A DNA stretch of 64,000 bases from an uncultured Gemmatimonadota bacterium. Its GTDB lineage: Bacteria; GCA-2686955. Positions 25,406 to 48,289 of the stretch are shown piece by piece. A program made the position numbers and the translations under genes. The notes beneath the pieces are model-generated. The model was not told the origin of the DNA. It searched no databases and saw nothing but the letters and a program-made list of their open reading frames with translations. How positions within the stretch are numbered: position 1 is the first letter of the stretch; each line of letters opens with the position of its first letter. The stretch spans positions 1-64,000 of the forward strand of contig CAZBBK010000007.1 in assembly GCA_964490075.1 (NCBI GenBank), written 5' to 3'.

Positions 25406-25424
25406 CGAAGTGCCCTTCTCTCGG

Positions 25425-27237: not shown

Positions 27238-28518
27238 ATGCAACAACGGAGCGGAACGCTCTACACCTACGAAGCACCGGTCCAAAGCCGGCGGCGACTC
27301 TCGCGGATCGCGGTAGAGTCGCTCGAGGGGGCGCCCTGGGAGGGTTCCTTCCGCCTATTCTTGAACTGCCGGACCGAGTGCGAGGGGCACCTGGTGGTGC
27401 GAGTGGGGACGTGGGAGGAGCGGATTCCGCTCGATGCCGGGACGCAGCGGCGGGTGGTGACGATTCCGGGACGGGCTCCGCAGGGCCGCGATGCCGTGCG
27501 GCTGCGTTTCTCGATCGAGCGCTCGAGCCTGCTGCGGCCCTGGGCATCGGAATCGAAGCTGAAGTGGGTCTTTGACGAGACCTGGGAGCTGCAGGCGGTT
27601 GCGCCGGTCGAGGACGACGCAGTGGAGGAGCGCTTGCACGCGGCGGCCAACACCGGCATCGCGCCCGACACCGAGCCCGGGCTCTTGCCGGCGCGGCGCC
27701 AACCGCCGCCGGTGGAGACCTTGCTCGCGGAATGGCGCACCCGCGCCGACGATGCCGAGGGCGAGACGGCACCCTCGCCCTTCGAGGCCTTCATGCCGGA
27801 GGAGGCGGAGGACCAGGGGACGGGACCGGATCAGGCAGCGGCCGCGGCGGCGGTGGCGAATCCCGCGGACGCGGAGAGCGTTCCTTCCGGCGGCGCCACG
27901 ACCAGTGTCAAGAACACGCCGCCGGCGCCCTCTCCCTGGGTGATGGATGAGCTCGACGAGGCGCAGCTGGAGGAGCTGGAGGCGGTCGCCGAGGCGGCGG
28001 TCGTCGCGGAGGAGGTGGGCGAGACTCCTTTGGCGATCGAAAAAGCCGGGCAGATCGAGCCGCTCGAGTTCTTCGCGGTCGAGAACGACGAGGCGGCGGC
28101 GGTCGGCATCTTCGACGCGGACCCGCCCCGAACCGACCTCGAGGCCAGCGGCGAGACGCTGCCGCGGGAGCAGGAGACCGACCCGAGCGAGCCGCCGGTG
28201 TCGATCGAAGCAGAGATCGAGCCGATCGAGGAGGCGCTCGCCAAGGTGCTGGGCGGCAGCGAACCGAGCCCCCTCGTGGCGGCCGAGCCCAACTCCGGGA
28301 GCGCGCCGCAAGAGGCCGCGGAAGCGGCGCGGCTCTCGCAGAGCGAGGGTCTCCGCGGCGAGCTCGAGCACTTGGTCCGCGAGGGAGGGCTGGTCCTGGA
28401 GCAGGCCGACGCCAGGCTCGATCGCATCGAGAGCCAGGTGCGCCGAGAGCTGGGCGAAATGCGCGCGGAGATGGCGCGCTTGCGCGAGCTGCTGGAGACG
28501 CTGCGGGAGCGCGTCTAG
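27238..28518 (+). CDS. Hypothetical protein: N-terminal globular domain, acidic Pro/Ala/Glu-rich linker, C-terminal coiled coil
   Basis: Genome-like codon usage, fills the gap between flanking genes, ATG at 27238 after AAGG. No family recognised. Confidence 0.7.
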   Translation: MQQRSGTLYTYEAPVQSRRRLSRIAVESLEGAPWEGSFRLFLNCRTECEGHLVVRVGTWEERIPLDAGTQRRVVTIPGRAPQGRDAVRLRFSIERSSLLRPWASESKLKWVFDETWELQAVAPVEDDAVEERLHAAANTGIAPDTEPGLLPARRQPPPVETLLAEWRTRADDAEGETAPSPFEAFMPEEAEDQGTGPDQAAAAAAVANPADAESVPSGGATTSVKNTPPAPSPWVMDELDEAQLEELEAVAEAAVVAEEVGETPLAIEKAGQIEPLEFFAVENDEAAAVGIFDADPPRTDLEASGETLPREQETDPSEPPVSIEAEIEPIEEALAKVLGGSEPSPLVAAEPNSGSAPQEAAEAARLSQSEGLRGELEHLVREGGLVLEQADARLDRIESQVRRELGEMRAEMARLRELLETLRERV

Positions 28519-28528
28519 TGGCCCACTA

Positions 28529-29956
28529 CTAGAGTCCGCGCGAGCAGGCCGGCCGGCCGGCCAGATCGCGCCCCAGCGTTAGGGCTGGCAGCGCGTGGGG
28601 CTCCACGGCACGCAGCTCGACCTGCTGCCGCGAGCCACCAGACCCCCAGAAGTTGCGAGTCAGATCGAGCGTCACGTCGTTGCCTCCGCCGAACTCACCG
28701 CTGGAAGCGACGACCGTCGGTCCGGGCCCATCGGCCGCATCCATGTCGTTGCCGCGCACGATCAGATCTTGCCAATCGGAGGCGTGCAGCAGCGCCGCCT
28801 CGCCCGCCACCAGGGCCAGATTCTCGACGAAGCGGTTGCAGGCGACGATCGCGGGCCGCTTGCCCGCGTCGTTGCGGTGCGTGAACGCGATGGCGGCGCC
28901 GCGCGGTGCCCGGTTGGCGCCGAAGAACGACTGCGCGATGACCGGCGAGCCGTTGCCGTGGACCGCGATCGCGCCGCCGCCCATGGGTGCGGCGAAGTCG
29001 AGCTCGTTGGACTCGAAGCTCGAGCGGCGGATCGAGGGATCGCTGCGGTGGGCGATGAAGAGCGCGCCCCCGGCGGTGATGGCGAAGTTGTCGTGGAAGA
29101 GGCAGTCCGTGGTCTCGAAGTGGGCGCCGTAGGAGGCGTGCATGGCGCCGCCGCGCTCGGCGAGATTGGCCGCGAAGAGACAGTCCTCGAAGAGCGGAGA
29201 TGCCCCGAGCAGACGCACCGCCCCGCCCCCCTTCGCAACCGCCTCGTTGGCGCGGAACTCACACCCCACGATCTCGACCTCGATCCCTTCCGCCTCGGCG
29301 ATGGCCAGCGCGCCGCCGACGTGAATGGAGCGATTGTCGGAGAACACCGAATCGACGATCCGCACCCGATCGAGGAGGCGATAGAGATAGATCGCGCCGC
29401 CCATCACCACCTCGTCGGGCAACTGCTGGGGATCGACCACGATCTCCTCGCCCTTGTCGTAGAGGGCGGCGTTCGACTCGAAGTGCACAGCTTCGATGTA
29501 GGGCGCGACACTTTCCCCGAAGAGCGCGGAGCCGCCGGCGTGGCGGATCTCGGCATGGCGGATGATGCTGCCCGAGAGGTAGCGATCGTCGACGTCGAAG
29601 CGGGCCCCTTCGGCCGAGGGCGAGAAATGGATGCCGCCCCAGTCGTCGGTCGAGCCGTCGAGACCTTCGAAGCGCAGCGGAAGTCCGGGCGCGCCTTGCG
29701 CCACCAGGGCGCCGTGGATGACCAGACTCGGCCCGGGCATCACGCCGCGATCCGCGGGATCGAGACGTCCCATGAGGATTCGGGCGCCGGGATCGATGGT
29801 CAAGGTCGCTCCCGAAAGCACCACGACATCCTCGGTGAAGGTGTAGGGAGAGCCCATCTGGGTCCATCGTGTGTCGTCGTCGATCCACAGGACGGCGTTC
29901 GCGGTCGAAGTCCAGAGGGCGAGAATCGTTGCCGTGCGTCGCGTCTGGTGCAGCAT
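28529..29956 (-). CDS. Secreted right-handed beta-helix protein with Pmp-like GGA(I/L/V) and FxxN repeats
   Basis: Signal peptide, GSPY...GATLTIDPG start, WGGI, about 7 FxxN..GGA repeats, terminal NFWG. Confidence 0.8.
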   Translation of the reverse strand: MLHQTRRTATILALWTSTANAVLWIDDDTRWTQMGSPYTFTEDVVVLSGATLTIDPGARILMGRLDPADRGVMPGPSLVIHGALVAQGAPGLPLRFEGLDGSTDDWGGIHFSPSAEGARFDVDDRYLSGSIIRHAEIRHAGGSALFGESVAPYIEAVHFESNAALYDKGEEIVVDPQQLPDEVVMGGAIYLYRLLDRVRIVDSVFSDNRSIHVGGALAIAEAEGIEVEIVGCEFRANEAVAKGGGAVRLLGASPLFEDCLFAANLAERGGAMHASYGAHFETTDCLFHDNFAITAGGALFIAHRSDPSIRRSSFESNELDFAAPMGGGAIAVHGNGSPVIAQSFFGANRAPRGAAIAFTHRNDAGKRPAIVACNRFVENLALVAGEAALLHASDWQDLIVRGNDMDAADGPGPTVVASSGEFGGGNDVTLDLTRNFWGSGGSRQQVELRAVEPHALPALTLGRDLAGRPACSRGL

Positions 29957-29992
29957 GATTCCGGCCTTTCGTGCAATGCCGGATCCCCTGTT

Positions 29993-30008
29993 TGCATCAC
30001 CAGTGCCA
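29993..30008 (-). promoter_or_regulatory. Sigma54 (-24/-12) promoter for the beta-helix gene
   Basis: Minus strand reads TGGCACTGGTGATGCA (GG-N10-GC), ending 36 nt before the ATG at 29956. Confidence 0.7.
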
Positions 30009-30130
30009 TTCTTGGACACGACGCCCAACGCGTTGCAGTACAACGACTCGATCCAGAGCGCCCGAAGCCCCTCCGTCGCCCGGCATTACATCGCGCCGTA
30101 CGGTCTGTAAGGGTTCGCGCCAGCAAAGGC

Positions 30131-32446
30131 TCAGAAGAGGTCGCGCAACGTGTCGCCCGCCACCACCGCCGACTGCGGGATCACCAGTTCTCCACCGGAT
30201 CCCATGAAGCTCCAGCGCGCCGCGACCACCCGGGCGTCGCCGTTGGGCGCGGTGGTGCCGTAGGGGATTCGTATGCGGGCGATCCCGTCGGCGCCGACCG
30301 GCGCCAGGGCGCGCCAGGGGAGTCGGTAGTCGGCCTCTTCGTACTCGATCTCCAGTTCGACTCGAAGCTGCGCTCCGGTCGTTCCGGCGGCCGCCACCAC
30401 CGCACCCGGGACGCGCTCCCAAACCTGGCCCACGGGGAAGGGCTTGCCGGTCACCGGACCGACAGTGCCGCCCGCGTACTGCGGGGTCGCGTAAACCAAG
30501 CGCAGGTAGTCGATCGATCCGGCCTCGGCACCGACCACGCGGCGCTCGAGATCGATCGGCACGCCGCCGACCAGCAGCCGCCCGGCCATGGTCGCGAACC
30601 AGCGCGACGAGACCGGCAAGGGCGAGCGCTGCGCCCGAGCGACGTAGCGCTCCCAGCTCGGCTCCCCGACCACCTTGCAGAGCGAGCGGGTGAGAGAGAT
30701 GATCTGCACCGGCAAGTAGACGAATCGGACCTGGCGCCGCTCGAGCATGCGCTCCGCGGCGGCCGGCGACTCCTCGAGAAAGAAGAGGGCCGGTGCGCGG
30801 TAGCTGTCGATGCCGATGTAACTGCCGAAATTGTTGGCCACGCTGGGGGCAGCCGCGGCCCACTCGATCAGGTGCCCGCGGTCCCAGTGCGAGAGCACCG
30901 CCTCCTCGGCGGCGGCGCCACGGTAGGCGCGAATCCACTCGAAGGCGCGTCGCTCGCCGATCACCGGATCGGCCTCGGTGCCGACCCAGTCGTGCTCAGC
31001 AGCGCTGAGCCATTGGCGGGTGTTCTGGATGCTGGGCCACTGCGCCGCCAGCGCCGCCAGCAGGATGGCCGGGGCCCAGAGCTTGGCGGGGCCGCGGCGC
31101 ACCAGAAGGGCCGCGCCCCAGCCGAGCAGGACCGCCATCGGCACCGCCAGGGGATCGGCGAAGCGCCGCTGCAAGAGCGCCTGCGGCAGCAGGGTGGCCA
31201 CGGCCACGACCCAGGGCAGCAGTGGGTCGTCGCGGCGGCACAGCGCGCGCCAGGCGGCCAGCAAAAGCACCGCGGGCAGCACCACCACCCCGTAGCCGAG
31301 CGCGAAGAAGAGCACCCCTGGCTCGGACCCCGGGCCGACCAGCGGCAGCGATTCGCCGACCCGGCTCATGAACGCGTCGGCACGCGACACCCAGGCGATG
31401 CCCTCGGCAATGCCGCGCGCCGGCGCCAGGGAGAGCCGCCACGAGATCAGGGCGAACGCAGCGAGCACGGCCGCCACCGCGAAGGGATAGGCTCGCGCGG
31501 CGCGCCTTCCGGCGGCCAGGCGCCCGCTCTCCAGCAGCAGGGGCGGCACGAACACGCACGCGCCCAGGGCCAGCTGCGCCGGATGCAGCCAAGACAGATT
31601 GACCACCATCCACGGCAGCTCATGCCGCCACGGGCTGTCCCAGACCGCCGGAAAGAGTGTCGCCGCGGCGACCAGGTGCAGCGTCAGCCCAAGTGTCGCG
31701 ACCCCCGGAAGTGTATCTTGCGAGCGCCGCACGAGCATCCAGCCGAGCACGATCTGCAGGTTGACGACGTAGAGAATCGCCGCCACCCAGGAGCCGATCA
31801 TCAGCCCGCAGAGCAAACCGAGCAAGGTGCCCCACAGCGCGCTCTTGGCCCGCGACATGATTGCATCAGGGCGCAAAGCCTCGCTGGCGACCAGCAAGAG
31901 CGCGGCGTTGAGCAGGGCAATCCAGGCGTGGTGATCGCCGTTGCCGAGCGACGAGTAGTTGATGGTGCCGCGACACAAGGCGACGCTGACCCCGGCGACC
32001 GCCGCGCCGGTGAGGCCGGCGACCGCTGCGCCGATGCGCCACGCCGCCAGGACCGCGACCAGCACCGCCGCGATGCCGAAGACGACCGGCGCCGACGCCG
32101 TGGCGTGCTCGATCCAGCGCCGGCGCTCCGGCTCGGCGTCGGGCACGAAGGGTCCGAAGACCCGGGCGAGCAGCCCGTCGTAGTAGGGAGGCCAGGGGAT
32201 CTTCGCGCCCTGGGGGTGGTTCATCCACGGGTCTTGCTGGGCGACGCGGCCTTCGCGCAGCGCTCGCTCCACCCGGCGAGCATGGTAGAGACCGTCGGGA
32301 TCGCGCGAAAACCACCCCCCCCGACCATCGGGATGGGCATCACTACGAATCCCGAATCGCGGAATCGAGGCCAGGGCGCCGGCCGCCACCAGGACAGCGA
32401 GGAGTGCCAGCGCGCGGGCGCGGAAGGGGCGCCGTGGCGATCCCAC
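30131..32446 (-). CDS. STT3/AglB/PglB-family oligosaccharyltransferase-like membrane protein
   Basis: DPDGLYHARR, WPPYYD, GNGDHH, RVGE (TIXE-like), VLSHWDRGHLI (WWDYG-equivalent), about 13 TM segments, C-terminal RIPYGT. Confidence 0.82.
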   Translation of the reverse strand: MGSPRRPFRARALALLAVLVAAGALASIPRFGIRSDAHPDGRGGWFSRDPDGLYHARRVERALREGRVAQQDPWMNHPQGAKIPWPPYYDGLLARVFGPFVPDAEPERRRWIEHATASAPVVFGIAAVLVAVLAAWRIGAAVAGLTGAAVAGVSVALCRGTINYSSLGNGDHHAWIALLNAALLLVASEALRPDAIMSRAKSALWGTLLGLLCGLMIGSWVAAILYVVNLQIVLGWMLVRRSQDTLPGVATLGLTLHLVAAATLFPAVWDSPWRHELPWMVVNLSWLHPAQLALGACVFVPPLLLESGRLAAGRRAARAYPFAVAAVLAAFALISWRLSLAPARGIAEGIAWVSRADAFMSRVGESLPLVGPGSEPGVLFFALGYGVVVLPAVLLLAAWRALCRRDDPLLPWVVAVATLLPQALLQRRFADPLAVPMAVLLGWGAALLVRRGPAKLWAPAILLAALAAQWPSIQNTRQWLSAAEHDWVGTEADPVIGERRAFEWIRAYRGAAAEEAVLSHWDRGHLIEWAAAAPSVANNFGSYIGIDSYRAPALFFLEESPAAAERMLERRQVRFVYLPVQIISLTRSLCKVVGEPSWERYVARAQRSPLPVSSRWFATMAGRLLVGGVPIDLERRVVGAEAGSIDYLRLVYATPQYAGGTVGPVTGKPFPVGQVWERVPGAVVAAAGTTGAQLRVELEIEYEEADYRLPWRALAPVGADGIARIRIPYGTTAPNGDARVVAARWSFMGSGGELVIPQSAVVAGDTLRDLF

Positions 32447-32447
32447 T

Positions 32448-33878
32448 TCAGTCCTGAATGCCGTAGCGATCGAGGCGTGAGTAGAGCGCCGGACGGGACA
32501 GTCCCAGGCGACTGGCGGCTGCCGACTTGTTGCCTCGACAGGCGATCATCGCGCGCCGCACCAGCACCTTCTCGAGCTGCTCCACGCAATCGGCGAGGGT
32601 GCCTTCGAGCGGCGGGAAAGGGTCGTCCGCGGGGCCGGCGGCCGCCCCCTTCGGTGCTTGCGTTCCCGGCCGGCGCTCCTCCAGCGCCGCCTCCAGATCG
32701 TCGATCCCGATCAGCGTGTCGTCCTCGACGAGGTTCGCCAGGCGCTCGACCAGGTTCTTGAGCTGGCGCACGTTGCCCGGCCAGCGCTCGGCCACCAGGC
32801 GCTCCAGGGCGGCATCCTCGAAGCCGGCCACCCGGGTGCCCAGCTCGCGGTTGAAGCGGGTCAGGAAATGCCGGGCCAGGAGGGGAATATCCTGGGCGCG
32901 CCCGCGCAGCGGCGGGATCGTGATCGGGACCACGTTGAGCCGGTAGTAGAGATCGCGCCGGAAGCCGCCACTCTCGACGGCGCCCTCCAGATCCTGGTGG
33001 GTGGCGGCGACGATGCGCACCTCGGCCGCGATCGGCACCGAGGCGCCGAGGGGCTGGAACTCGCGTTCCTCGATCACCCGCAGCACCTTGGCCTGCAGCT
33101 CCAGTCCCATGTCGCCGATTTCGTCGAGGAAGATCGTGCCCCCGCGCGCCAGCTCGAACTTCCCCTTGCGGTCGGCGCGCGCGCCGGTGAAGGCCCCTCT
33201 GAGGTGCCCGAAGAGCTCGCTCTCCAGCAGCGTGGAGGGGATCGCGGGGGTGTCGACGACCACGAAGGGGCCCTCGCGGCGCGGGCTGGCGAAATGCAGG
33301 GTGCGGGCGATCAGCTCCTTGCCGGTCCCGGTTTCGCCCCGCACCAGCACCGTCGACGCGGTGCGTGCCACCTTGCGAGCCTGGCGCAGCACCGCCTCCA
33401 TCTGCGGCGCTTCGAACACCACCGCGTCGAGGCCGGAGGCCCGCTCCACGACCTCGCGCAGCGCCCGCAGGTCGTCGCGATTGGCCCGCGCCGCCAACGC
33501 GTTGGTCAGGCGGCGGCGCAGCTCCACGGCGTCGAAGGGCTTCTGCAGGTAGTCGATGGCGCCGCGCTTCATCGCCTCGACGGCGATCTCGACCGAGGCC
33601 TCGGCCGTGACCACCAGTACGTCGGGGCCGGCGCCGGGGTCGGCGGCGATCTCGTCGAGCAGAGTCAGGCCGGCGTCGGGGCTGGGAAGGGGATCGTCGC
33701 CGCCCGGCGGCAGGCCGAGATCGAGCAGCACCAGGTCGTAGCGCCCGCCGCGCAACATGGCGCGCGCCGATTCCAGGTCGGCCGCCTCGTGCGCCTGCCC
33801 CAGCTCGGCCGCCTCGATGCCCGCGACCAGCTTCCAGCGCACCGCGCGCTCGTCGTCCACGACCAGGAACTGGGTCAT
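32448..33878 (-). CDS. Sigma54-dependent response regulator, PrsR-like
   Basis: REC with LLDLGLPP...DAGLTLLDEI, GETGTGKE, GAFTGA, FLDEIGDM, WPGNVRQL, LGLSRPALY. Confidence 0.92.
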   Translation of the reverse strand: MTQFLVVDDERAVRWKLVAGIEAAELGQAHEAADLESARAMLRGGRYDLVLLDLGLPPGGDDPLPSPDAGLTLLDEIAADPGAGPDVLVVTAEASVEIAVEAMKRGAIDYLQKPFDAVELRRRLTNALAARANRDDLRALREVVERASGLDAVVFEAPQMEAVLRQARKVARTASTVLVRGETGTGKELIARTLHFASPRREGPFVVVDTPAIPSTLLESELFGHLRGAFTGARADRKGKFELARGGTIFLDEIGDMGLELQAKVLRVIEEREFQPLGASVPIAAEVRIVAATHQDLEGAVESGGFRRDLYYRLNVVPITIPPLRGRAQDIPLLARHFLTRFNRELGTRVAGFEDAALERLVAERWPGNVRQLKNLVERLANLVEDDTLIGIDDLEAALEERRPGTQAPKGAAAGPADDPFPPLEGTLADCVEQLEKVLVRRAMIACRGNKSAAASRLGLSRPALYSRLDRYGIQD

Positions 33879-36433
33879 TCTCGTATCCCTCGCTCGGCCG
33901 GAAGCGTGATCCGGAAGGTCGCCCCCTCTCCCGGCTCGTTGTGCAGGTCGATCCGCCCGCCGTGGGCGCTGACCGTGTCGAGCACGAAGGCCAGACCGAG
34001 CCCCTGTCCGCCGGGGCGCGAGCTGGCGAAGGGCTCGAAGAGATCGGCGGTCCACTCGGGCGGGACTCCGGGTCCGGTGTCGGCGACCTCCAGTGTTACA
34101 GAGCCCGCCCTCGAGGTCGACACTCCGAGGCGCAGGATGCCCCGGCCCTCCATCGCCTGGATGGCGTTCTTGGCCAGGTTCTCGACCACGCGGCGCAGCT
34201 TCGCGGCGTCGCCGCGCACCGGCGGCACCTCGTCCCAGGGCCGGCGCACGATCTCGAGGCGGGCGTCCCGGGGGACCGATCCGAGCGCCGCCAGCGCCAG
34301 CTCACGAAGATCGAGCGGCTCCACGGGCCCACTGCGCCCGCGCACGAACTCGCCCTGGGAGCGGACCAGCTCGTGGATTCGGCGCACCCGCAGCTGGCAC
34401 TCTCGCAGCGCCTCGGCCAGCTCGGGCGAGTCGCCGGAGCCGGGCCCGATGCGCAGCAGTGCGCCCTCCAGCTCCTCGGCCAGGTTGCCGACATCGTGCA
34501 CCACGAAGCCGGAGAAGCGGCCCAGCGTCTCCAGCTTGCTGCGCAGCGTCGCGGCCCGCTCCAGGCGGCGCTGCTCGGTGACGTCGTCGAGCAAGAGCTG
34601 GGTGCCCAGCTCCTTTCCTTCCGAATCCGGCGCCAGCAGGCGCTGGACGATGTAACGCACCTGGCGCCGGCCACCCGCGCCCGCCGGCAGATCCAGCTCA
34701 CCGCGCAGCGGGGGATCCTCCGGCCCCGCGTGATCGAGCGCCGCGCCGAAAGGTGCCAGCGCTTCGACCGAATCCGCTTCCGCACCGATCCAGGCCGCGG
34801 CGTCGATGCCGAGCAAGGTGGCCGCGGCACGGTTCAACGACTCCAGGCGCCCGGCGGCGTCGATCACCACGACTCCCGTGGCGATGCCCGCCAGCACCTC
34901 GCGGTGGTGGGTCGCGGTGCGCCGCTCGACCTCCACCAGGCGGCCGTTCTGCAACGCCACGGCGGCCTGTGCCGCCACCGTTCGCAGCAGCGCGCAGTCC
35001 TCGGCGTCGAGCGCTCTGCCGCCGGCGGGGGCGCCGACCAGGAGCAGCGCAAAAGTGCTTTCGGCGCAGACCACCGGCACCACGCCGGCCACGCGATCGC
35101 GGCGCAGCAGGAGCTGCTCGGCCCGGGGCAGGGCGGCGAGATCGGGTCCGCCGTCGTCTTCCAGGCGCCGCAGCACGGCACGGGTGCGCGAGGCGCGCGC
35201 GACCAGCCCGGCGGCGCCGGCATCGATCCGGCGGGTCGCGTCGAGCGGGTCGACGAAGCCCTTCTCCTGCTCGATGCGCACCAGCAGGGTGGCGTGGCTC
35301 AGGCCGAGCGCGACGGGGAGCTGGTTGCGCAGTGCGGCACCGAGCTCGGCCGCCGTGGGCAGGGTCGGTAGATGGGTCGCCAGGTGCTCGAGCAGGTCCC
35401 GGTCGCGCTGCCGCCGCCGGTCGAAAAGCTGGTCGATCCAGCGGATCGCCTCGACTCCGGCGCGCAGCAGCAGGCTGGCGGCGATCGCCGTGGCGAGCAT
35501 CCCGCCGAAGAGGGTGAGAGGCGAGGCGCGCGCGGCGAGCCAGTAGGCCGCGACCCCGGCCGCGGCGACGAAGCATCCGCCGAGGGCCAGGGTGCCGGCC
35601 AGGCTGGCCAGCGAGCGGCGCAGCAGGTGGTCGGACTCGAGGGCGTGATCGAAGAGGATGGCCACGGCGAAGCCCAGGGGCAGCAGCACGATCGCCAGCA
35701 ACGGCAAGGCTCCGAAAGGGAGGGCGGCGCCGAGGATGGGTCCGGGAATCAACACGCACGCGATCACCGGCAGCAGCGCCCCGAGGGCCAGTGCGCGCAC
35801 CACCCAGACCAGGCGCCGGCCGCGGTGCCAGGAGCGCAGGCGCCGGGTGCGCGCGATCAGCAAGATGGCGACCCCCGCCAGCAAGGCCGCCCCGCTGATC
35901 TGCGCCGCGCGATCGACCAGGGCGGCGGCGCCGTGCAGGCCGAAGGGAGCGAGCAGATCGTCGGCGAGGTAGAGCGCGGCCTGCAGATAGACCAGGCTCA
36001 GCGTCGCGCGTGGATGGGTGCGCAGCAGACCGTGGCGCTCGGGGAAGACCAGCGCCGTATGGGCCACCAGCGAGACCGTCAGACCGCTCAGCAGGCCGCG
36101 CAGCGCGACCGCGGCGTCGAAGAGCTCGATCCCGAGCGGAGCCGGCCACGGCCAGGCGATGCGGTTGACCATCAGCCAAGCGCCGAGCACCGCCGACGTG
36201 CGCGCGAAGACCGGCGAGGCGCCGTGCGAGGAGGTGCTCTGCCCGACCACCGACCCGACCGCCACCAGCAGCACTCCGGCCGCCGCGAAGGCCAGCACCG
36301 AGCGCGGCGAGGCGGCGCCCGCTTGGAGCTCCGCATAGGCCCTGCCGAGCACGAAGAGGAGCACGCAGGCCGACTCCGCCGCTCCGCCCCAGCGCCGCAG
36401 CCCGGTCCCCTCCCCGGTCGCATTCGCGCTCAC
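33875..36433 (-). CDS. Multi-TM sensor histidine kinase with GAF and PAS domains, PrsK-like H-box
   Basis: About 9 TM segments, GAF (AAQAAVALQNGRL), PAS, GRFSGFVVHDVGNL, ENLAKNA, DTGPGV, GQGLGL. GTG at 36433 overlaps the CHAT stop. Confidence 0.88.
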   Translation of the reverse strand: MSANATGEGTGLRRWGGAAESACVLLFVLGRAYAELQAGAASPRSVLAFAAAGVLLVAVGSVVGQSTSSHGASPVFARTSAVLGAWLMVNRIAWPWPAPLGIELFDAAVALRGLLSGLTVSLVAHTALVFPERHGLLRTHPRATLSLVYLQAALYLADDLLAPFGLHGAAALVDRAAQISGAALLAGVAILLIARTRRLRSWHRGRRLVWVVRALALGALLPVIACVLIPGPILGAALPFGALPLLAIVLLPLGFAVAILFDHALESDHLLRRSLASLAGTLALGGCFVAAAGVAAYWLAARASPLTLFGGMLATAIAASLLLRAGVEAIRWIDQLFDRRRQRDRDLLEHLATHLPTLPTAAELGAALRNQLPVALGLSHATLLVRIEQEKGFVDPLDATRRIDAGAAGLVARASRTRAVLRRLEDDGGPDLAALPRAEQLLLRRDRVAGVVPVVCAESTFALLLVGAPAGGRALDAEDCALLRTVAAQAAVALQNGRLVEVERRTATHHREVLAGIATGVVVIDAAGRLESLNRAAATLLGIDAAAWIGAEADSVEALAPFGAALDHAGPEDPPLRGELDLPAGAGGRRQVRYIVQRLLAPDSEGKELGTQLLLDDVTEQRRLERAATLRSKLETLGRFSGFVVHDVGNLAEELEGALLRIGPGSGDSPELAEALRECQLRVRRIHELVRSQGEFVRGRSGPVEPLDLRELALAALGSVPRDARLEIVRRPWDEVPPVRGDAAKLRRVVENLAKNAIQAMEGRGILRLGVSTSRAGSVTLEVADTGPGVPPEWTADLFEPFASSRPGGQGLGLAFVLDTVSAHGGRIDLHNEPGEGATFRITLPAERGIRE

Positions 36434-39306
36434 TTCCGCTCCATTCGGGTCTGACCCACGAAGGGCACCACATCGCCCCGCCCGAAGAGCGCGAAGGGCG
36501 CCCAGTCGAAGGGATGAGGGCGCTGCGTGCGCAGCTCGAGCTGGGCGCCACGCAATGCGCCGGCCGCCGAGGCGCCGGCCTGTAGACGGCGATAGAAGGC
36601 TCCCATCAGCTCGGCCGCCGCCTGGTCGTCGACGCGCCACAGGCTGGCCACCACCGCGTCGGCCCCGGCGAAGAGGATCCCGCGCAGCAGACCCAAGAGC
36701 TCGTCTCCCGGGCGCACACGCGAGCGACCGGTTTCGCAGCCGGAGAGCACCACCAGGGGACAGGCGATCCGGGCGCGGTAGAAATCGGCCGCCCGGAGCC
36801 GATCCCCGGCCAGGGTCAGCGCGGAAGCCATTGGGCTGTCGTGGTCGAACTCGCCGTGACAGGCGAAGTGCAGATGGCAGGCCTCGCGTGCCGCCGCCAG
36901 CACCGCCTCCACGCCGGCGGCGTCGCCCTGAAGGAGCATGCTGCGCTCCCCGAGCACCCGGCGCACCTCGCCTGCCTCGCGGCGGAAATGCGGCGCCCGC
37001 TCGTCGTCCACGGCGCAGATCAGCGCCGGGCCGAGCGGGCGCGGCCGTGCCGGCCGCAGCGCCAACGAGCGCAACACCGACGCGCTCGGCACCACGACGG
37101 TCTCGGTGCGCATCAGCAGCGGCTCCCCCCCTGCCCTCAAGGCGCAGAAGGGCAGCGCGTGCAGCACGCCGTGGGGCGCCACGTAGAGCGTGTCGGCGCG
37201 CGTGAGCTCCTCCTCGAAGGGGCCCAGCAAGGCGTCCCCGAGCGCGTCCAGGCAAACGCGCGCCGAGCTTTCCAAGCTCGGCGCGAGAGAGCGCCGCAGC
37301 TCCGGTCCGAGACTGGCCATCTCGGCGACCTCGGCCTTCCAGTCGCACATCACCCAGCTGCGGATTTCATCCCATCCGGCGCGCCGCTCGATCCGCACCC
37401 GCCCCTCGGGATCGACCAGAAAGGCCGCCAGCTCCCCGCCCTGCGCGTAGAGATCGAGGAAGAGCTCGCGGGGCGCCAGCAGCGCCGCGATCTCGGCGGC
37501 GCCGAGCGGCGTCGCGCGCTGCAGATCGATCAGCTCGCCGTGGCCGCTGCGTGTGAGCCGCGCGCGCAGGGCGTCGAAACGCTCCGCCAGCTCGCGGGTG
37601 CGCGCCGCCGCCCGCACCAGGGCTCCCTCGCCGGCACCGCCGCTCCCCGTCCCCCCCGCACCGGCCTCCTCCGCCGCCGCCAGCGCCGAGACGCGTGCGC
37701 TGTGCTCCTTGCGGGTGCGCAGCATCGCCCGCCAGTCGGCCGCCACCTGCTGCGGCAGATCCTCCGCGGCGTTCTCCAGCTCGCCGCCGGCATCCAAGAG
37801 GTCGGCCAGCACCGCCGACTTGGCGGCCTGGGCGGCTCGCAGCGCCGCATCCGTGTCGCCAGCCGCGAGCTGCAGGCGCACCGCGGTGTCGAAGAGCTCG
37901 CGCTTGTCCTCCACGAAGGCGCTCTTGGCCAGGTCGCCGGCCAGCGCCAGGCGCGCGTCCTCCACCAGATGCAGCGCCTCTTCGGCGGCGCGGCGCGCCG
38001 GGTCGAGCGTGCCGCGCCGCTCGTGCAAGAGCGCGGCGCGTTGCCGTGCCCGCAACGAGAGCCAGCCGATGCGGTGGGCGTCGCCGAGCGCGCGAGCGCG
38101 CTCGTAGAGCCCCAGCGCTGTCTCCTCCTCGCTTCCCTCGCTCGCCCGCGCCTCGACCAGCAGCGCATAGGCGGCGTAGAGCGGCGCGCCCGCCGCCTCC
38201 AGGGCCGCGCGGGCGCGCGCCGCCCGGGTGCGTGCCGCCGATGCCAGCCCCGCCGTCAGCTCCAGCGCCGCGAGATCGACGTCGACCTGGGCCTCCCAGA
38301 CCTCCGCCCCGGCCTCACGGAACACCGCGCCCGCGCGGGCCAGCACCGCGCGGGCCTCGCCCTCGTGCCCGCAGCGCGCATATGCCCGCCCCAGGTTGAT
38401 CGCCAGGATCGCGTCGTCGTAGGCCAGCCCCTCGGCTTGCAGATGCGCGTGCGCGGAGCGGGCCAGCCGCAGCGCCTCCTCGGCGCGGTTCAGATCGAGC
38501 AGGAGCTGGCAGAGATTCACCTCGGTGAGGGCCGCGTAGGTCTCCATGCCCAGACGCCGGTACTCGTCACGGGCCCGCGTCGCTCGCTGCACCGCCGCCT
38601 GCAGCTCACCGTGCAGCACATCGATGTTGGCCAGGTTGGCCTCGCAAGTGGCGAGCGCGGCGGCATCGCCGTGGCGGCCGAAGACCTCGCCCGCCCACCG
38701 ATAGCGCCGGGCCGCCTCCTCCAGCTCTCCGGCCTGCGCCTCGCCCCCCGCCAACGCCACCTCGGCGCGCGCCGCCAGGCGCTCCCGGCCGTGTTTGCGA
38801 AACACCGCCACGGCCCGCTCCAGGCTGCGCCGCCGCCCCTCGAGATCGAGGTCGTGGTGCAGCATCTCGGCCAGCGCCAGGTCGACCTCGGCCTCGCCCA
38901 GCTCATCGCCCAGGCGACGGAAGCCCCGCCGCGCCTCCGCCCCCGCACGGCGCGCCGCCCGGTGATCACCGGCCTGCCACAGTGCACGCGCCCGCTCCAG
39001 CTCGATCTCGGCCGCCAGCGCTGTCTCGCCGGGGTCATCCTCGTCCTCCGAAGGCAGCGCCCGCGCCTCGTCGAGCGCGGCACCGGCCTCGCGATAGCGC
39101 CCCAGCGAGCGCAACGCCCGCCCCAGGGCGAGCCGCGCCCGCGCCCGCTCGGTGTTGGCTGCGCCCTCCGGCAGCGCCGCCAGGTGCGCCCGCGCCGCCT
39201 CCAGCTCCACCTCGGGGTCGGCTTCGAGACGGCCTCCGTCCGACGCGCGCGCCTGCCCCGGACTCACGCCCGGCGGCCGCTTCTCGCCGTGGTCTGTGCG
39301 CGCCAT
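36430..39306 (-). CDS. TPR-repeat CHAT-domain (caspase HetF-associated) protease
   Basis: Long TPR-like array, APHGVLHALPF, catalytic His in HFACHG and Cys in VLSGCETG, VVASLWRVDD, HPFDWAPF. Confidence 0.92.
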   Translation of the reverse strand: MARTDHGEKRPPGVSPGQARASDGGRLEADPEVELEAARAHLAALPEGAANTERARARLALGRALRSLGRYREAGAALDEARALPSEDEDDPGETALAAEIELERARALWQAGDHRAARRAGAEARRGFRRLGDELGEAEVDLALAEMLHHDLDLEGRRRSLERAVAVFRKHGRERLAARAEVALAGGEAQAGELEEAARRYRWAGEVFGRHGDAAALATCEANLANIDVLHGELQAAVQRATRARDEYRRLGMETYAALTEVNLCQLLLDLNRAEEALRLARSAHAHLQAEGLAYDDAILAINLGRAYARCGHEGEARAVLARAGAVFREAGAEVWEAQVDVDLAALELTAGLASAARTRAARARAALEAAGAPLYAAYALLVEARASEGSEEETALGLYERARALGDAHRIGWLSLRARQRAALLHERRGTLDPARRAAEEALHLVEDARLALAGDLAKSAFVEDKRELFDTAVRLQLAAGDTDAALRAAQAAKSAVLADLLDAGGELENAAEDLPQQVAADWRAMLRTRKEHSARVSALAAAEEAGAGGTGSGGAGEGALVRAAARTRELAERFDALRARLTRSGHGELIDLQRATPLGAAEIAALLAPRELFLDLYAQGGELAAFLVDPEGRVRIERRAGWDEIRSWVMCDWKAEVAEMASLGPELRRSLAPSLESSARVCLDALGDALLGPFEEELTRADTLYVAPHGVLHALPFCALRAGGEPLLMRTETVVVPSASVLRSLALRPARPRPLGPALICAVDDERAPHFRREAGEVRRVLGERSMLLQGDAAGVEAVLAAAREACHLHFACHGEFDHDSPMASALTLAGDRLRAADFYRARIACPLVVLSGCETGRSRVRPGDELLGLLRGILFAGADAVVASLWRVDDQAAAELMGAFYRRLQAGASAAGALRGAQLELRTQRPHPFDWAPFALFGRGDVVPFVGQTRMERK

Positions 39307-39423
39307 CGAGCGCCTTCTCGGCCTGGGCCGCGTGAGAGGGGAGCTGGAAGAAAAGGCGGCCGCACTCGCCGCCTGGGCCGCGCGGCGGCACAGCGCCGCC
39401 TTCGCTCCGATTCTACGCTCTGA

Positions 39424-40065
39424 TCACTCCAACGAGGTCGACCCCAAGCGGATCGCCACGCCCCGGCAGCCGGCGAAGGGGGCCAGCTCGATCCGCGCCC
39501 TCCCCGACTCGTCGGTGGCGATCGTCAACCCGATCGCCTGCTCGCCCGCCGCGGCCGGCTCCTCCGCCTCGCCGGCCGCCGATCCCTCCAGCACCAGGCG
39601 CACCCCCTGCTGCGGTGCCCCCTCTCTGAGGGCACGCACCGTCAGCACTCCCTCCACGATCACGAACACCAGGCGCAATCCGCCGTTGATCGCTAGCTCC
39701 GCGACCGTCTGCCCCTCCTCCTCGTCGCCGCCGCGCAGCCCTGCCACCGCCGCCTCGCGAAGATCCTCTCCCCGGCCCGAGTCGACGAAGCTCGGCTTCG
39801 GCTGCAGCCGCATGCTCAGCACCACCGCATCCCGGGCCGGCCGATGGCCTAGGTGCAGCGCGTCCCAGAGCGCCCCGGGCAGCGCCGCCCCTTCCTCCTC
39901 GCGCTCCAAGGAGCTCCATTGGTCGAAACGCTTGAACAGATCGATCACCTCTCGCGAGCACTCCAGGCACTCGCCGATGTGGGAGCTGATTTCGTCGCAG
40001 GGCCCGTCGAGCACGTAGTCGACCAGCCGCTCGGGAGCCGGGCAGAGGGAGTGCAGAGCTTTCAC
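39424..40065 (-). CDS. Putative zinc-finger anti-sigma factor-like protein
   Basis: CP...HIGECLEC (HxxxCxxC, ZAS/zf-HC2-like) at the N-terminus; start overlaps the ECF sigma stop; no obvious TM helix. Confidence 0.7.
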   Translation of the reverse strand: MKALHSLCPAPERLVDYVLDGPCDEISSHIGECLECSREVIDLFKRFDQWSSLEREEEGAALPGALWDALHLGHRPARDAVVLSMRLQPKPSFVDSGRGEDLREAAVAGLRGGDEEEGQTVAELAINGGLRLVFVIVEGVLTVRALREGAPQQGVRLVLEGSAAGEAEEPAAAGEQAIGLTIATDESGRARIELAPFAGCRGVAIRLGSTSLE

Positions 40066-40811
40066 GGCTTCTTCCCCTCGCGCCCCTTCGGGCGCTCTTC
40101 GGCCGGCGTCGCATCGCCACTCGAGCTCAGACGCCAGGCCTCTTCGAGGCGGGCCTGGGCGCGATGTCGCCGCCAGGTCACGGTGTTGATCGAAACTCCC
40201 ATGGCGGCACCGATCTCGCGGTCGGTGCGCCGCTCCCAGAAATAGTCGCGCAAGACTCGCCGGTCGCGCGGATCATCGAGGGCATCCACCAGCGCATTGA
40301 TCTGTTGCAGACGCTCGCGCTCTTCCAACAGCTCATCGGCCGGCCGGCCAAACTGTGAGCACCACATCCCCAGACTGTGCGGTAGCGAGTCGTCGGCCCC
40401 GATGCGACCTTTCCAGGACTCTCCGCGCTCCTCGTCCCCGCTCCGCCCATCCAACGACACTTCGCTTCGCACATCGCGACACTTGCGCGTCAAGCGGCGA
40501 TTTTCGCTGATTCGCACCCGCTCGGCGATCCGCAGCAGATAAGCACGCAACGAGGTCTCTCCCCGGTAGCGCGCCAGCGCTCCCTGGGAACAGAGCAGGA
40601 AAACCTGTTGCAGCAGATCTTCTATGCCCTCGTCGGAACCCAGGCGCCGCCCGCGCCTTAGCCACTGCCGCACCCCGGCCGCGTGCAGCGCGTAGAGCTG
40701 CTCCCAGGCCCCGCGTTCCGGTGGCGACGTCGCGCAACGGCGCGCCAGGCGCCGATCGGCCCCGCGCCCATCGTTGCCCTGGGTGGCGCCCGTGGCGGCG
40801 GCGGCGATCAC
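40062..40811 (-). CDS. ECF-type sigma-70 factor
   Basis: Region 2 (AWEQLY, IEDLLQQVF, YRGETSLRAYLLRIA) and region 4 (DREIGAAMGVSINTVTWRRHRA). Confidence 0.88.
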   Translation of the reverse strand: MIAAAATGATQGNDGRGADRRLARRCATSPPERGAWEQLYALHAAGVRQWLRRGRRLGSDEGIEDLLQQVFLLCSQGALARYRGETSLRAYLLRIAERVRISENRRLTRKCRDVRSEVSLDGRSGDEERGESWKGRIGADDSLPHSLGMWCSQFGRPADELLEERERLQQINALVDALDDPRDRRVLRDYFWERRTDREIGAAMGVSINTVTWRRHRAQARLEEAWRLSSSGDATPAEERPKGREGKKP

Positions 40812-42334
40812 GATCCATCCTCCGCGCCCGCCACCAGGGTGTCGAGCACCGCCAGCGCCGCCTCCACGTCGAGGCGCCCGTAGCCGAAGTAGTCGTGGTG
40901 CCCCTGCGCGCCCTCCGGCGGCAGCGCCGAGTCGCGCAGCGCCCGGGCCAGCCGGTCGGCGCTGGCGTCCGGCTCCAGCGCGCGCATCAGCGCCACCGCC
41001 CCGGCCACCTGCGGCGCCGCGAAGGAGGTGCCGCGACCCTTGTCATCGGACGTGAAGATGTCGACTCCGGGGGCCGCCAGATCGGGCTTCACCAGGCCGT
41101 AGATGCCGCCGCCGTGGCTCGACCAGTCGAGCGAGCTGTCCGGGTACGCGGCGTCGTAGGCTCCGACCGTGATCGCCCGCGCCGCCGCCGCCAAGCCCCC
41201 GAATCCGGCCCCGAGCGCACCCTCGTTGCCGGCTCCCACCACCACCGGCAGAGCGCCGTTGACCACCAAGCTGTCGACCGCGCGCGAGAGCTGGTCCGAG
41301 CCGTTCGAAAGCGCCGGCGCCGAGGTCGGGATCGGCAGAAAGCGCAGCGCGATCGGTCCGCGGTCGCTGTAGGAGAGGTTGACCGCATCGATGCGGTCGA
41401 TCTCGATGCTCGGCGCACCGACCGGCGACCAGGTGCGATCGCGGTTGGCCAGGAGCCAGTCGAAGGCGGCCAGGATCCGATCCGAGGTGGTGTGCCCCTC
41501 GGGCAGCGTATCGCTGTCGGGATAGGCGATGTTGACGTCGATCAGGGCGGCGAAGGGGGCCACACCGTAGGCCCGGTCGAGCCCCAGGGCCACATGCCCG
41601 ACCCGCGTCCCGTGCCAGAGGTTGTTGGACCCGGCCGGACCGGTTTGATCGGCCGGATCGTCCTCCTCTCCGCTCACCGCGTCGAAAGCGCCGGCGATCT
41701 TCAGCGGATCGTAGGGACCGTAGCCGTCGACCCCGGCGTCGACCACGGCGCAGGTGGTGTTGAGCCCGGTGGTCCCGCAGGGCCACTCGCCCCCCGTGGT
41801 GTCCCAGACCGAGGGCAGCACCATGCTGTCGAAGAGGAAAGCGCTGTCGAAGGCGGGGTCGAGCGCGGTCGGCCCGCAGGGCACCACCGGCGACGCGGCC
41901 CCCGGAGCGGCCGCCTGAATCGCCTCGACCATCACCACCGGCAGGTTCGCGTGCACCACCAGGAGCTCGAACATCAGGGGATCGAGGTAGAAGGGAAAGG
42001 AGTTTTGCCAGAGCGGATAGATCAGCTCCGACCCGACCACCAGCGCGGTCGGCAAGATCTCGAATCCCTGCTCCACATGCCCCCCGAAGGGGATCACGAT
42101 CGCCTCCAGCTCGGCCAGGAGCGAGTCGCGATCGGCGGCGTAGGGGCCACGCTCGAAGGTCACCATGAAATCGACCAGCTCCGGCCCCCCGACGCCAAAT
42201 GCCTCGATCTCGTCGTCGATCCGGTTGTTGTTCTGATCGCGAAACCACCCCAGATACCAGGGCGCTTCGTCGTTGGCGGCGGCCTCTCCCGCACCCAGAG
42301 CGAGGAGCAAGGCGATTGCTGGAATGGCGTGCAT
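40808..42334 (-). CDS. Secreted S8 subtilisin-like serine peptidase
   Basis: Signal peptide; triad in AVVDAGVD, WHGTRVG and GTSFAAPQVAG; oxyanion AGNEG; KPDLAAPG; GYGRLD. Confidence 0.92.
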   Translation of the reverse strand: MHAIPAIALLLALGAGEAAANDEAPWYLGWFRDQNNNRIDDEIEAFGVGGPELVDFMVTFERGPYAADRDSLLAELEAIVIPFGGHVEQGFEILPTALVVGSELIYPLWQNSFPFYLDPLMFELLVVHANLPVVMVEAIQAAAPGAASPVVPCGPTALDPAFDSAFLFDSMVLPSVWDTTGGEWPCGTTGLNTTCAVVDAGVDGYGPYDPLKIAGAFDAVSGEEDDPADQTGPAGSNNLWHGTRVGHVALGLDRAYGVAPFAALIDVNIAYPDSDTLPEGHTTSDRILAAFDWLLANRDRTWSPVGAPSIEIDRIDAVNLSYSDRGPIALRFLPIPTSAPALSNGSDQLSRAVDSLVVNGALPVVVGAGNEGALGAGFGGLAAAARAITVGAYDAAYPDSSLDWSSHGGGIYGLVKPDLAAPGVDIFTSDDKGRGTSFAAPQVAGAVALMRALEPDASADRLARALRDSALPPEGAQGHHDYFGYGRLDVEAALAVLDTLVAGAEDGS

Positions 42335-42501
42335 GGTCTGCGTCTCCGACCGTCCGACAGCTCGGTCCCATTCTAACCGTCGCCCGCTCGGCGGGAATTC
42401 TTGGCGACGCCCACCATACTGCCGGCCCCTGCCCGCCATGGCATGATCGGTCTCGATCGATCCCACCGCGATGGAAGCCGTGCGCGGCAAGAGAGACCAG
42501 C

Positions 42502-43473
42502 ATGACCGAATCCCGCGCAGCCACGCCGGCGCGATTCTCGGGTCCCCCTCCGCCGCCGCGCCACCTCACGGTCTCGATCGCCGATCGCTGCAATCTGCGC
42601 TGCACGATGTGCCCGGCGGAGTTCGGGGAGGGCTGGCCGCACGGCCTAGAACGCTCCGATCTGACGCCGTAACGGGCTCGGCGCGTGGTCGACTCGTTTC
42701 GGGCGTTGAACATTTCCCTCGAGTCGGTGGAGCCGGAGATCTACCGCTCTATCCGCATCGGGGCGACCTTCGAGCGCTGGCTCGCCAACGTGCGCCGCCT
42801 CGCGGAGCTCTAGCGCGCCGCCGGCCGCGGGATCGACGATCCGCCGATCATCCACTTCAACTGCGTCGTCCATCGCAAAGCCGTGCCGGGGCTGCCGAAG
42901 CTCGTGGAGCTGGCGGGGCAGCTCGGCGTGCAGGCCGTCGCCTTCCCCGAGCTGCTGCTCTTCGACCGGCGGCAGAAGGCCGAGCTCGAGTCCCAGACCT
43001 TCCCCGTGGACGCCGCCGACCGTGGGCTGTGGAAGTCCACGGTCGAGGAGATGACACGGATCGGGGCGCGCCATGGCCTCGGAATCGTCGACCGCACCGC
43101 GACCCAGGTGCCGCGCTCGCGGCAACATCTCCGGTGGCGCGCAAGCGCGTTGGAAGGCACGCAGACCTGTCCCGATCCCTGGTCGGCGCTCTTCATCCGA
43201 CTCGACGGCTCGTGCGGATTCTGTCCTTCGTCGGAGCTCAATATCGGCAACATCCACCACGATCCCTTCGACGAGATCTGGTACGGCCCACGCGCCCGCC
43301 GGCTCTTTCTGGAGCGGCGCGTTCCGGACTGCATCCAGATCTGCTCCCGGGGCCTGGTGGCGGAGCCGCGCCACCCCACCCTCGAGCTCTGGTCACGGCG
43401 CTTGCGCATGCGCTGGCGGCGCTTGCACCCCCGTGGAATCGTCAGCGGGCGGAGAGGGGCGGCCTATTTCTAG
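42502..43473 (+). pseudogene. Radical SAM/SPASM-twitch domain pseudogene
   Basis: CNLRCTMC motif and C-terminal CPDPW...DG..C...IGNI...EIW lie in one frame, broken by TAA (42670-42672) and TAG (42811-42813). The GGE and TNG segments are missing. Confidence 0.8.
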
Positions 43474-48128: not shown

Positions 48129-48255
48129 GCGGGGGCTTGGGGTCCGGACCCTCTTCGGGTGGTGGCTCCACCTTCCGGGCACGGGGGCGCTCGAGACGCG
48201 GGCGATGCTACTCCGGCCGCGCGGGGGGTGTCGAGGTGGCGGGGATCGGCTACCT

Positions 48256-48281: not shown

Positions 48282-48289
48282 TGGATCGG

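Follow-up and report, generated by a model that had tools for sequence, protein, structure and literature searches.

Probable juxtaposition of a TPR-CHAT/ECF sigma factor cassette, a sigma54 two-component module and an AglB-like oligosaccharyltransferase gene in an uncultured Gemmatimonadota bacterium

Introduction

In type III-E CRISPR systems, the cytoplasmic protease Csx29, a TPR-CHAT protein that is activated when Cas7-11 binds its target RNA, cuts the soluble protein Csx30 and relieves the inhibition of an extracytoplasmic function (ECF)-like sigma factor, CASP-sigma (PMC10028731). The Csx29/Csx30 pair is the sole experimentally shown case of a switch with this logic. In the DdvS/DdvA system of Myxococcus xanthus, an ECF sigma factor is paired with a single transmembrane protein that combines a CHCC zinc anti-sigma domain and a periplasmic TPR-CHAT part with a His-Cys dyad; cutting of the anti-sigma has been proposed for this switch, which governs a CBASS-CRISPR island and, as described, needs no CRISPR effector (PMC11506125). 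Here we analysed an eight-gene locus in a stretch of 64,000 nucleotides (the window; contig CAZBBK010000007.1, positions 1 to 64,000) from an uncultured Gemmatimonadota bacterium. The locus probably consists of three separable modules whose juxtaposition is specific to this lineage, and is not a conserved eight-gene machine. Module A comprises an S8 subtilase, an ECF sigma factor, a zinc anti-sigma factor and a TPR-CHAT protein, module B a histidine kinase, an NtrC-type regulator and a beta-helix protein, and module C an AglB-like oligosaccharyltransferase (OST).

Genomic neighbourhoods of S8 proteases, ECF sigma factors and CHAT proteins, which the initial annotation of this DNA stated to exist, are indeed catalogued as the context of the group ECF54 (PMC7826278; PMC8999054). 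The supplement of PMC7826278 lists a carboxypeptidase-regulatory-like protein as always present at position +1, together with a TPR-CHAT protein (+2 or +3) and a subtilase (-1 or +2). The group is given there as 100% actinobacterial, with a predicted promoter GTATCAG (-35)/CTCC (-10), and is described without a putative anti-sigma factor (Casas-Pastor et al. 2021, PMC7826278). Proteolytic control of the ECF54 sigma factors has been proposed from synteny alone (2022 review, PMC8999054).

Results

Layout of the locus

The window comes from contig C7 of a metagenome-assembled genome of 5.7 Mb in 136 contigs (about 70% GC; labelled G000 below). Gene starts and junctions were determined by a start-codon scan, and domains by searches of Pfam and NCBIfam. 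Eight closely packed genes, all on the minus strand, occupy positions 28529-42334, and the domains named in the initial annotation were confirmed:

40808-42334, minus strand: S8 subtilase, 508 aa (PF00082, E 2e-23)
40062-40811, minus strand: ECF sigma factor, 249 aa, GTG start (TIGR02937, Sigma70_r4)
39424-40065, minus strand: anti-sigma factor, 213 aa, with zinc motif and no Pfam or NCBIfam match
36430-39306, minus strand: TPR-CHAT protein, 958 aa (PF12770, E 4e-55)
33875-36433, minus strand: histidine kinase, 852 aa, GTG start (GAF, PAS, HATPase)
32448-33878, minus strand: NtrC-type regulator, 476 aa (Response_reg, Sigma54_activat, HTH_8)
30131-32446, minus strand: STT3/AglB-like OST, 771 aa (PF02516 and PF22627)
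28529-29956, minus strand: beta-helix/PMP-repeat protein, 475 aa (PF13229, Chlam_PMP, signal peptide)

Start and stop codons overlap at the S8/sigma, sigma/anti-sigma, CHAT/kinase and kinase/regulator junctions, as had been reported, with each overlap measuring 4 nt, and the regulator and OST genes are separated by 1 nt. Longer gaps separate anti-sigma from CHAT (117 nt) and OST from the beta-helix gene (174 nt). The S8 protein has a signal-peptide-like N-terminus, the beta-helix protein starts with a signal peptide, and the kinase and OST are polytopic, as judged from sequence and a crude hydropathy scan.

Module A recurs apart from the kinase block

For comparison, we used three genomes of the same family (G001 to G003; 83-84% complete, fragmented) and one of the same class (G004). 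In G002 (contig C187), module A has the same order, S8-sigma-anti-sigma-CHAT, with protein identities of 75%, 67%, 58% and 62%. It is followed there by genes for a helix-turn-helix protein, a CxxCxxCC protein, a radical SAM protein and an acyltransferase; these 6.7 kb contain no kinase, regulator or OST gene, and there is no same-strand cargo behind CHAT. A paralogue on contig C6 of the window's own genome is arranged CHAT-S8-sigma-anti-sigma (48%, 45%, 51-55% and 35% identity), and G001 (contig C613) carries CHAT-sigma-anti-sigma, its sigma factor being 51% identical. Both copies continue with an AAA ATPase and an SNF2 helicase, not with the kinase block. At one of the OST loci described below (L041), the order is sigma-anti-sigma-CHAT-S8. 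The S8, ECF sigma, zinc anti-sigma and TPR-CHAT genes are a conserved cassette that is separable from the kinase block. No match was found at 1e-5 when the window flanks were compared by tblastn with the G002 and G003 flanks.

No cas gene was present among the window open reading frames (ORFs) scanned, and a tandem-repeat scan of the window showed no CRISPR-like array. The window also contained no phage element, and an Rfam scan of it gave no relevant match. The CRISPR-free sigma/anti-sigma/TPR-CHAT/S8 unit proposed in the initial annotation is borne out by its recurrence in other genomes.

Several of these cassette regions have features of their own. Around the paralogue in the window's own genome (contig C6, about 80.7-92 kb; L019:14742-19901 and L020:1-9988), a second ECF sigma gene lies just upstream of the cassette, and the genes that follow on the same strand encode the AAA ATPase (PADLOC IetA, E 1.9e-16), the SNF2 helicase (BrxH/DrmD-type) and a 721-aa protein of no known family. 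This defence-like cargo may be under the same kind of switch. In G003 (contig C238, L023:1323-2561), a full-length CHAT orthologue is directly preceded on its upstream side by a P-loop AAA_23-like ORF and by a fragment in which 93 codons of a CHAT C-terminus remain (75% identity with the window CHAT); either the cassette region is rearranged or the contig is misassembled.

A sigma54-linked kinase/regulator/beta-helix module

The histidine kinase has approximately eight hydrophobic segments in residues 46-466, GAF, PAS, DHp and HATPase domains, a VHDVGNL H-box, and N, G1 and G2 boxes. Its N-terminal polytopic region of about 330 aa matches no Pfam family. The regulator (Sigma54_activat, E 8e-67) contains the Walker A motif GETGTGK, the GAFTGA motif and the sequence RRDLYYRL, which includes the arginine finger. 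The beta-helix protein matches PF13229 (E 1.6e-10) and Chlam_PMP and has orthologues with 42-50% identity in G002, G003 and G004.

In G003 (contig C160), the kinase (54% and 42%, in two pieces), regulator (56-64%) and beta-helix (50%) genes are contiguous on one strand with no OST gene between them, and their upstream neighbour is a divergent gene for a 4Fe-4S ferredoxin-type protein, not CHAT. A further kinase orthologue (37%) is present in G001 (contig C688), and in G004 (contig C20) the beta-helix gene stands beside a divergent sigma54 activator. The kinase, NtrC regulator and beta-helix genes are a second conserved module, separable from both CHAT and OST. The promoter assigned to it in the window is:

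29994..30008, minus strand: sigma54-type -24/-12 promoter, TGGCAC-N5-ATGC, 38 nt before the beta-helix ATG

This site has one mismatch to TGGCAC-N5-TTGC, and only four sites that good occur in the 64 kb. GG-N10-GC sites are located 33-38 nt upstream of the beta-helix start in four of four genomes (the window, G003, G002 and G004), and rpoN is encoded on contig C3 of the window's genome (E 2.6e-63). Because the promoter, its position and the gene linkage are conserved, and both rpoN and the GAFTGA motif are present, control of the beta-helix promoter by this regulator is well supported: the regulator, together with sigma54, would activate the -24/-12 promoter. Thus, control of the beta-helix gene by the sigma54 pair is very probable, as initially proposed.

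The module resembles known NtrC-family two-component systems in its kinase, in the receiver-AAA+(GAFTGA)-HTH_8 architecture of the regulator, and in the GG-N10-GC promoter before a neighbouring gene. It differs from them in the unmatched polytopic N-terminus of the kinase and in having a PMP-repeat beta-helix protein as its target. On contig C80 of G002 (L119:5808-6273), remnants corresponding to kinase residues 28-94 and regulator residues 410-475 lie upstream of the beta-helix gene; the two-component pair looks to have been deleted recently, with the promoter left intact.

An AglB-like oligosaccharyltransferase with a degenerate WWDYG motif

The OST protein exceeds the Pfam cut-offs for the STT3 and AglB core domains (PF02516, 31.7 bits versus 24.5; PF22627, 28.1 versus 27) and matches TIGR04154 (archaeo_STT3) with E 5.9e-47, which is below the cut-off of that model. 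Like STT3, AglB and PglB, it retains the acidic and histidine motifs, namely D49-P-D51, G168-N-G-D-H-H173 and E365, and all ten clade members compared share D51, D171, H173 and E365. By analogy with the AglB and PglB structures, these are putatively the D-x-D motif of external loop (EL) 1, the D-x-H motif of EL2 and the EL5 glutamate. In contrast to those enzymes, the WWDYG motif, which reads the +2 Ser/Thr of the sequon, is degenerate: when the window protein is aligned with 3vu0, the C-terminal domain of AglB, HWDRGH falls at this position, and across the ten members the equivalent is x-W-(D/N/T)-x-G-H, with the first Trp absent and the Asp varying between D, N and T. At E 1e-10 or better, the clade has at least 151 protein clusters, every one of them from uncultured bacteria. 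No description of a bacterial AglB-like OST clade was found in a literature search that did not cover many subscription papers.

Among the five genomes, OST was found only in that of the window, and the window OST as query retrieved none in G001-G004. A wider set of 72 OST loci, 62 of them metagenomic and 10 genomic, was screened by tblastn at 1e-5 with the window proteins and several homologues; such a screen may miss divergent beta-helix proteins. Neither kinase nor regulator was detected at any of the 46 loci having at least 1.5 kb upstream. The sigma cassette was present at two of these 46 (L041 and L047), in one layout in which it divergently abuts the OST gene; the L047 contig ends inside the anti-sigma gene. 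By a rough estimate (about 0.3 for a position within 10 kb and about 0.04 for direct abutment), a single cassette adjacency among 46 loci agrees with chance in the former case and is only marginally unusual in the latter. A PMP-type beta-helix gene directly downstream of OST was seen at one locus (L043) of the 44 with at least 1.5 kb downstream. Tandem OST copies occur in 13 of the 72 loci. Conserved glycan-assembly neighbours were not seen.

The beta-helix protein contains two N-x-S/T sequons and the S8 protein three; none has an acidic residue at -2, and neither count is above chance. The beta-helix protein, which had been put forward as the glycosylated substrate, thus finds no support as a dedicated target of the enzyme. 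The OST probably glycosylates exported proteins. Since the OST gene lies upstream of the sigma54 promoter, it is not a target of that promoter and probably rides on the kinase-regulator transcript. As to other glycosyltransferases nearby, a long ORF with a PMT_2 domain (GT-C, dolichyl-phosphate-mannose-type) is located in the window 3 kb upstream of the cassette (45354-49046, minus strand), and a PMT_2 gene also adjoins the OST/beta-helix pair at L043.

Integrity of the assembly

The linkage of the cassette to the kinase block is seen solely in this metagenome-assembled genome, a circumstance that would fit a chimeric junction. Logan contigs from run X1 (possibly the source sample) cover positions 34648-38171, 31711-34646 and 27500-31683 with 0-1 differences; the first of them crosses the CHAT/kinase junction at position 36430 with 0 differences, and the regulator/OST and OST/beta-helix junctions are bridged as well. 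A Logan contig from a second sample (X3) spans 36103-36576 with 0 differences, bridging the CHAT/kinase junction, across which the GC content is even. Because independent contigs bridge the junctions, we regard the gene layout as real DNA and an assembly chimera as very improbable.

Proteins of the sigma cassette

The catalytic residues of both proteases are intact, in agreement with the initial annotation: D199, H241 and S437 of the S8 protein sit in DAGV, HGT and GTSFAAP, and H817 and C857 of CHAT, together with G818, are invariant in six of six aligned homologues. The sigma factor scores 69.3 bits against TIGR02937 (cut-off 42.9); Sigma70_r4 is above its cut-off and Sigma70_r2 just under it (22.4 versus 24). 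The protein is of the ECF type, with sigma2 and sigma4 regions only.

The 213-aa anti-sigma protein carries the zinc motif C8...H29-x3-C33-x2-C36 and gave no Pfam match at E 0.01 or better and no NCBIfam match. A profile built from five orthologues and searched against 1.84 billion representative proteins returned 160 matches at E 0.001 or better, most of which cover the N-terminal zinc motif or the C-terminal beta domain alone; the profile also matches repeated C-terminal beta domains in large proteins. A T-D-x-x-G motif is conserved. The L041 homologue has a match to PF13620 with E 8.4e-5, below the cut-off. An alignment was made of the window protein, the L041 homologue and 21 full-length matches of about 200 aa that were picked by eye (n = 23; members down to 16% identity with the window protein). 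H29, C33, C36, R111, D185 and G188 are invariant in all 23 sequences, and G109 is nearly so. The first zinc ligand, C8 in the window protein, is His in most family members. R111 is part of a Gly-x-Arg motif in the linker that joins the helical zinc domain to the beta domain and that varies elsewhere along its length.

An AlphaFold2 model of the anti-sigma (mean predicted local distance difference test score 67.6) consists of an N-terminal helical bundle and a beta domain. Foldseek returned weak matches only, the best being the anti-sigma ChrR (E 3.9e-3, TM-score 0.22), which is suggestive, not evidence. The protein is likely to be a soluble zinc-type (ZAS-like) anti-sigma that would bind the adjacent sigma factor.

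In the hydropathy scan, the sigma factor showed no hydrophobic segment, and the cut-off was passed by one stretch each in the anti-sigma (residues 125-146) and CHAT (870-888). The former corresponds to predicted beta strands of the C-terminal domain and the latter lies inside the CHAT domain; as both are parts of folded domains, no membrane helix was assigned to either protein. CHAT also has no signal peptide and no N-terminal membrane helix, and its sequence points to a cytoplasmic TPR-CHAT caspase-like protease. A profile of its family reaches Csx29 chains (E 3e-5) and, with E 0.1 as the limit, no DdvA chain; phmmer against the PDB gave no match at E 0.01 or better.

The genes for anti-sigma and CHAT are in one frame, with a single TGA (39424-39426) and 39 stop-free codons (39307-39423) between them. 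We considered a read-through product or a broken DdvA-like anti-sigma/CHAT fusion and rejected both: the 39 intervening codons look non-coding, the corresponding gap in G002 is about 550 nt, and no fused form is required to explain a family of approximately 200-aa proteins. In view of the G002 gap, the shared frame, for which the chance is one in three, was judged coincidental. The same gap contains the following element:

39346..39374, minus strand: terminator-like GC hairpin followed by TTTTCTTCC, in the anti-sigma/CHAT gap (weak evidence)

The region yields three such hairpin/T-tract sites versus 3.6 expected, and the fold is not superior to that of shuffled sequence (z -0.16). An attenuator is a weak possibility here.

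A conserved promoter-like block upstream of the subtilase gene

The window and G002 share a conserved block, AGAAYTCC-N12-GACGGTT, which lies upstream of the S8 gene; its form in the window is:

42375..42401, minus strand: candidate ECF-type promoter, AGAATTCC-N12-GACGGTT, upstream of the S8 gene (putative promoter role)

The exact pattern AGAAYTCC-N11-13-GACGGTT has one copy each in G000, G002 and G003, and none in G001 or in the reversed controls. At up to three mismatches, no second copy was found in the window except for a chance-level match at 9410, and none precedes the CHAT, kinase, OST or beta-helix genes. The block looks like an autoregulated ECF promoter.

Neighbouring genes in the window

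Downstream of the locus (19648-25528, minus strand), the window encodes a complete and ordinary-looking MacB-type tripartite efflux set consisting of an outer-membrane factor, an HlyD-type adaptor, an ABC ATPase and two MacB_PCD/FtsX permeases. A 219-aa ORF at 42814-43473 (plus strand), divergent from S8, has a SPASM domain alone, and no radical-SAM core was detected in it. A complete radical SAM/SPASM gene lies 3 kb past CHAT in G002; tblastn of that protein against the window gave no match. An adjacent 4Fe-4S protein is mentioned in the ECF54 literature.

Discussion

Comparison with described systems

In content and order, module A corresponds to the ECF54 context, with the S8 subtilase at -1 and TPR-CHAT at +2 (PMC7826278). 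This likeness is one of genomic context and does not place the sigma sequence in an ECF group. The window differs from the published description of ECF54 in its upstream motif (AGAAYTCC-N12-GACGGTT versus GTATCAG/CTCC), in taxonomy (Gemmatimonadota-like and Eiseniibacteriota-like labels on the relatives versus Actinobacteria), and at position +1, where the window protein bears a zinc anti-sigma motif, whereas no anti-sigma has been recognised in the ECF54 description. This +1 protein may still be of the carboxypeptidase-regulatory-like kind: it has no Pfam match itself, and its L041 homologue matches PF13620 below the cut-off.

The cassette shares with DdvS/DdvA a zinc-binding anti-sigma motif beside an ECF sigma factor, here in a gene overlapping the sigma stop codon. 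In contrast to DdvA as reported (PMC11506125), the window anti-sigma and CHAT are separate genes, and the cassette includes an S8 protease. Given that neither protein has an assigned membrane helix or signal peptide, a proteolytic event would be cytoplasmic. In this it would resemble the action of Csx29, whose cleavage of Csx30 to free a sigma factor was stated correctly in the initial annotation (PMC10028731). The relationship to Csx29 is remote (NF041237, 35 bits versus a cut-off of 300; profile E 3e-5), no cas gene is present among the window ORFs scanned, and the 213-aa anti-sigma is of the ZAS type and unlike Csx30.

On this basis, we propose that the anti-sigma would hold the ECF sigma factor until some cytoplasmic cue leads CHAT to cut it, probably at the linker with the invariant Gly-x-Arg111. 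The freed sigma would then fire the conserved promoter upstream of S8, raising the expression of its own operon and of the secreted subtilase. The Gly-x-Arg motif is a candidate CHAT cleavage site by analogy with separase, for which Arg specificity is stated in PMC11506125.

One system or three modules

The overlap of the CHAT stop with the kinase start and the location of OST 1 nt after the regulator stop indicate that CHAT, kinase, regulator and OST are probably co-transcribed here as one transcript. An active sigma factor may thus increase kinase, regulator and OST levels. We regard such coupling as a by-product of gene order created by local rearrangement, in which the kinase block probably landed behind CHAT and OST probably inserted into the ancestral regulator/promoter/beta-helix arrangement, in this genome only.

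The initial annotation had instead treated the eight genes as one linked system, that is, as a dedicated two-tier cascade in which a CHAT-gated ECF sigma acts on the sigma54 pair, and this on an OST-glycosylated beta-helix surface protein. Such a cascade would agree with the single strand, the four 4-nt overlaps and the 1-nt gap, with the contiguity of the DNA in two samples, and with the pairwise links elsewhere (cassette-OST at L041 and L047, OST-beta-helix at L043, kinase-regulator-beta-helix in G003), but it would not lead one to expect that in the relatives compared the blocks are never linked, standing apart in G001, G002, G003 and the own-genome paralogue. Lack of linkage in other genomes is what the initial annotation had itself named as refuting the single system, and in these relatives the system fails that test. 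OST was not found in any of the four relatives, no kinase or regulator accompanies it at the 46 loci with upstream flank, it lies outside the reach of the sigma54 promoter, and its adjacency to the cassette is about as frequent as chance allows; the two sequons of the beta-helix protein are likewise at chance level, and the ECF-type motif precedes S8 only. We consider the dedicated cascade unlikely. Of the CRISPR-independent cascade wired to a sigma54 tier, the CRISPR-free cassette stands, and conserved wiring to the sigma54 block is not supported. A related and similarly doubtful view is that an operon fusion has put a protease-gated ECF sigma switch upstream of the sigma54 pair and an archaeal-type OST, giving a three-layer cascade from protease through ECF sigma to sigma54, and that the pairwise meetings at L041/L047, at L043 and in G003 reflect a shared function in envelope decoration, not chance. 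If this were true, one cytoplasmic proteolytic event would set the levels of sensor, regulator and OST, which would govern the production and, perhaps, the glycosylation of the PMP-type beta-helix protein.

The cassette might also be a threat or phage sensor, comparable to DdvS/DdvA or Csx29-Csx30-sigma, with interchangeable downstream cargo that is an envelope-remodelling set here and defence-like behind the paralogue. The cargo does vary between copies, with an AAA ATPase and SNF2 helicase following both the own-genome paralogue, where they match PADLOC IetA and BrxH/DrmD-type models, and the G001 copy; moreover, DdvS/DdvA controls a CBASS-CRISPR island (PMC11506125) and Csx29 frees an ECF-like sigma through the cutting of Csx30 (PMC10028731). 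Yet the resemblance of SNF2 and AAA proteins to defence models is generic, the G002 copy has no same-strand cargo after CHAT, and the eight window proteins give no specific defence match (a generic subtilase and a weak BovA match only), in a window free of phage and CRISPR elements. A sensor role of this kind is in our view improbable.

The juxtaposition of three modules, which we prefer, has to be set against several points. The absence of linkage in relatives rests on three fragmented, 83-84% complete genomes of the same family and one of the same class, and with a close-relative sample so small and fragmented this comparison is not exhaustive; the two closest OST homologues (72% and 71%, on 14-kb and 62-kb contigs) are outside it. 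The 4 nt shared by CHAT and kinase and the single nucleotide between regulator and OST look like selected translational coupling, not loose adjacency, and modules do meet pairwise elsewhere (L041/L047 and L043). In addition, for every member of this cassette type the proteolytic switch itself is an inferred one. Among the genomes compared, the eight-gene combination is joined in this one only. It was also not found described in the same literature search, in line with the initial annotation.

Biological significance

Since the combination is seen in this genome only, the eight genes as a "system" matter little; the useful pieces are the anti-sigma Gly-x-Arg motif with its candidate cleavage site, the sigma54-beta-helix module, and the AglB-like clade with a degenerate WWDYG motif. 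The OST clade is undescribed in the literature searched, and the drift of its sequon-reading motif raises the question of what such enzymes glycosylate. In the kinase-regulator-beta-helix module, a little-known phylum offers a clear-cut case of probable control by sigma54 over a secreted, PMP-like protein. The cassette of sigma, ZAS anti-sigma, cytoplasmic TPR-CHAT and S8 represents a catalogued candidate for a CRISPR-free, caspase-like sigma switch, for which the anti-sigma zinc motif and Gly-x-Arg linker give a concrete substrate and a candidate cleavage site.

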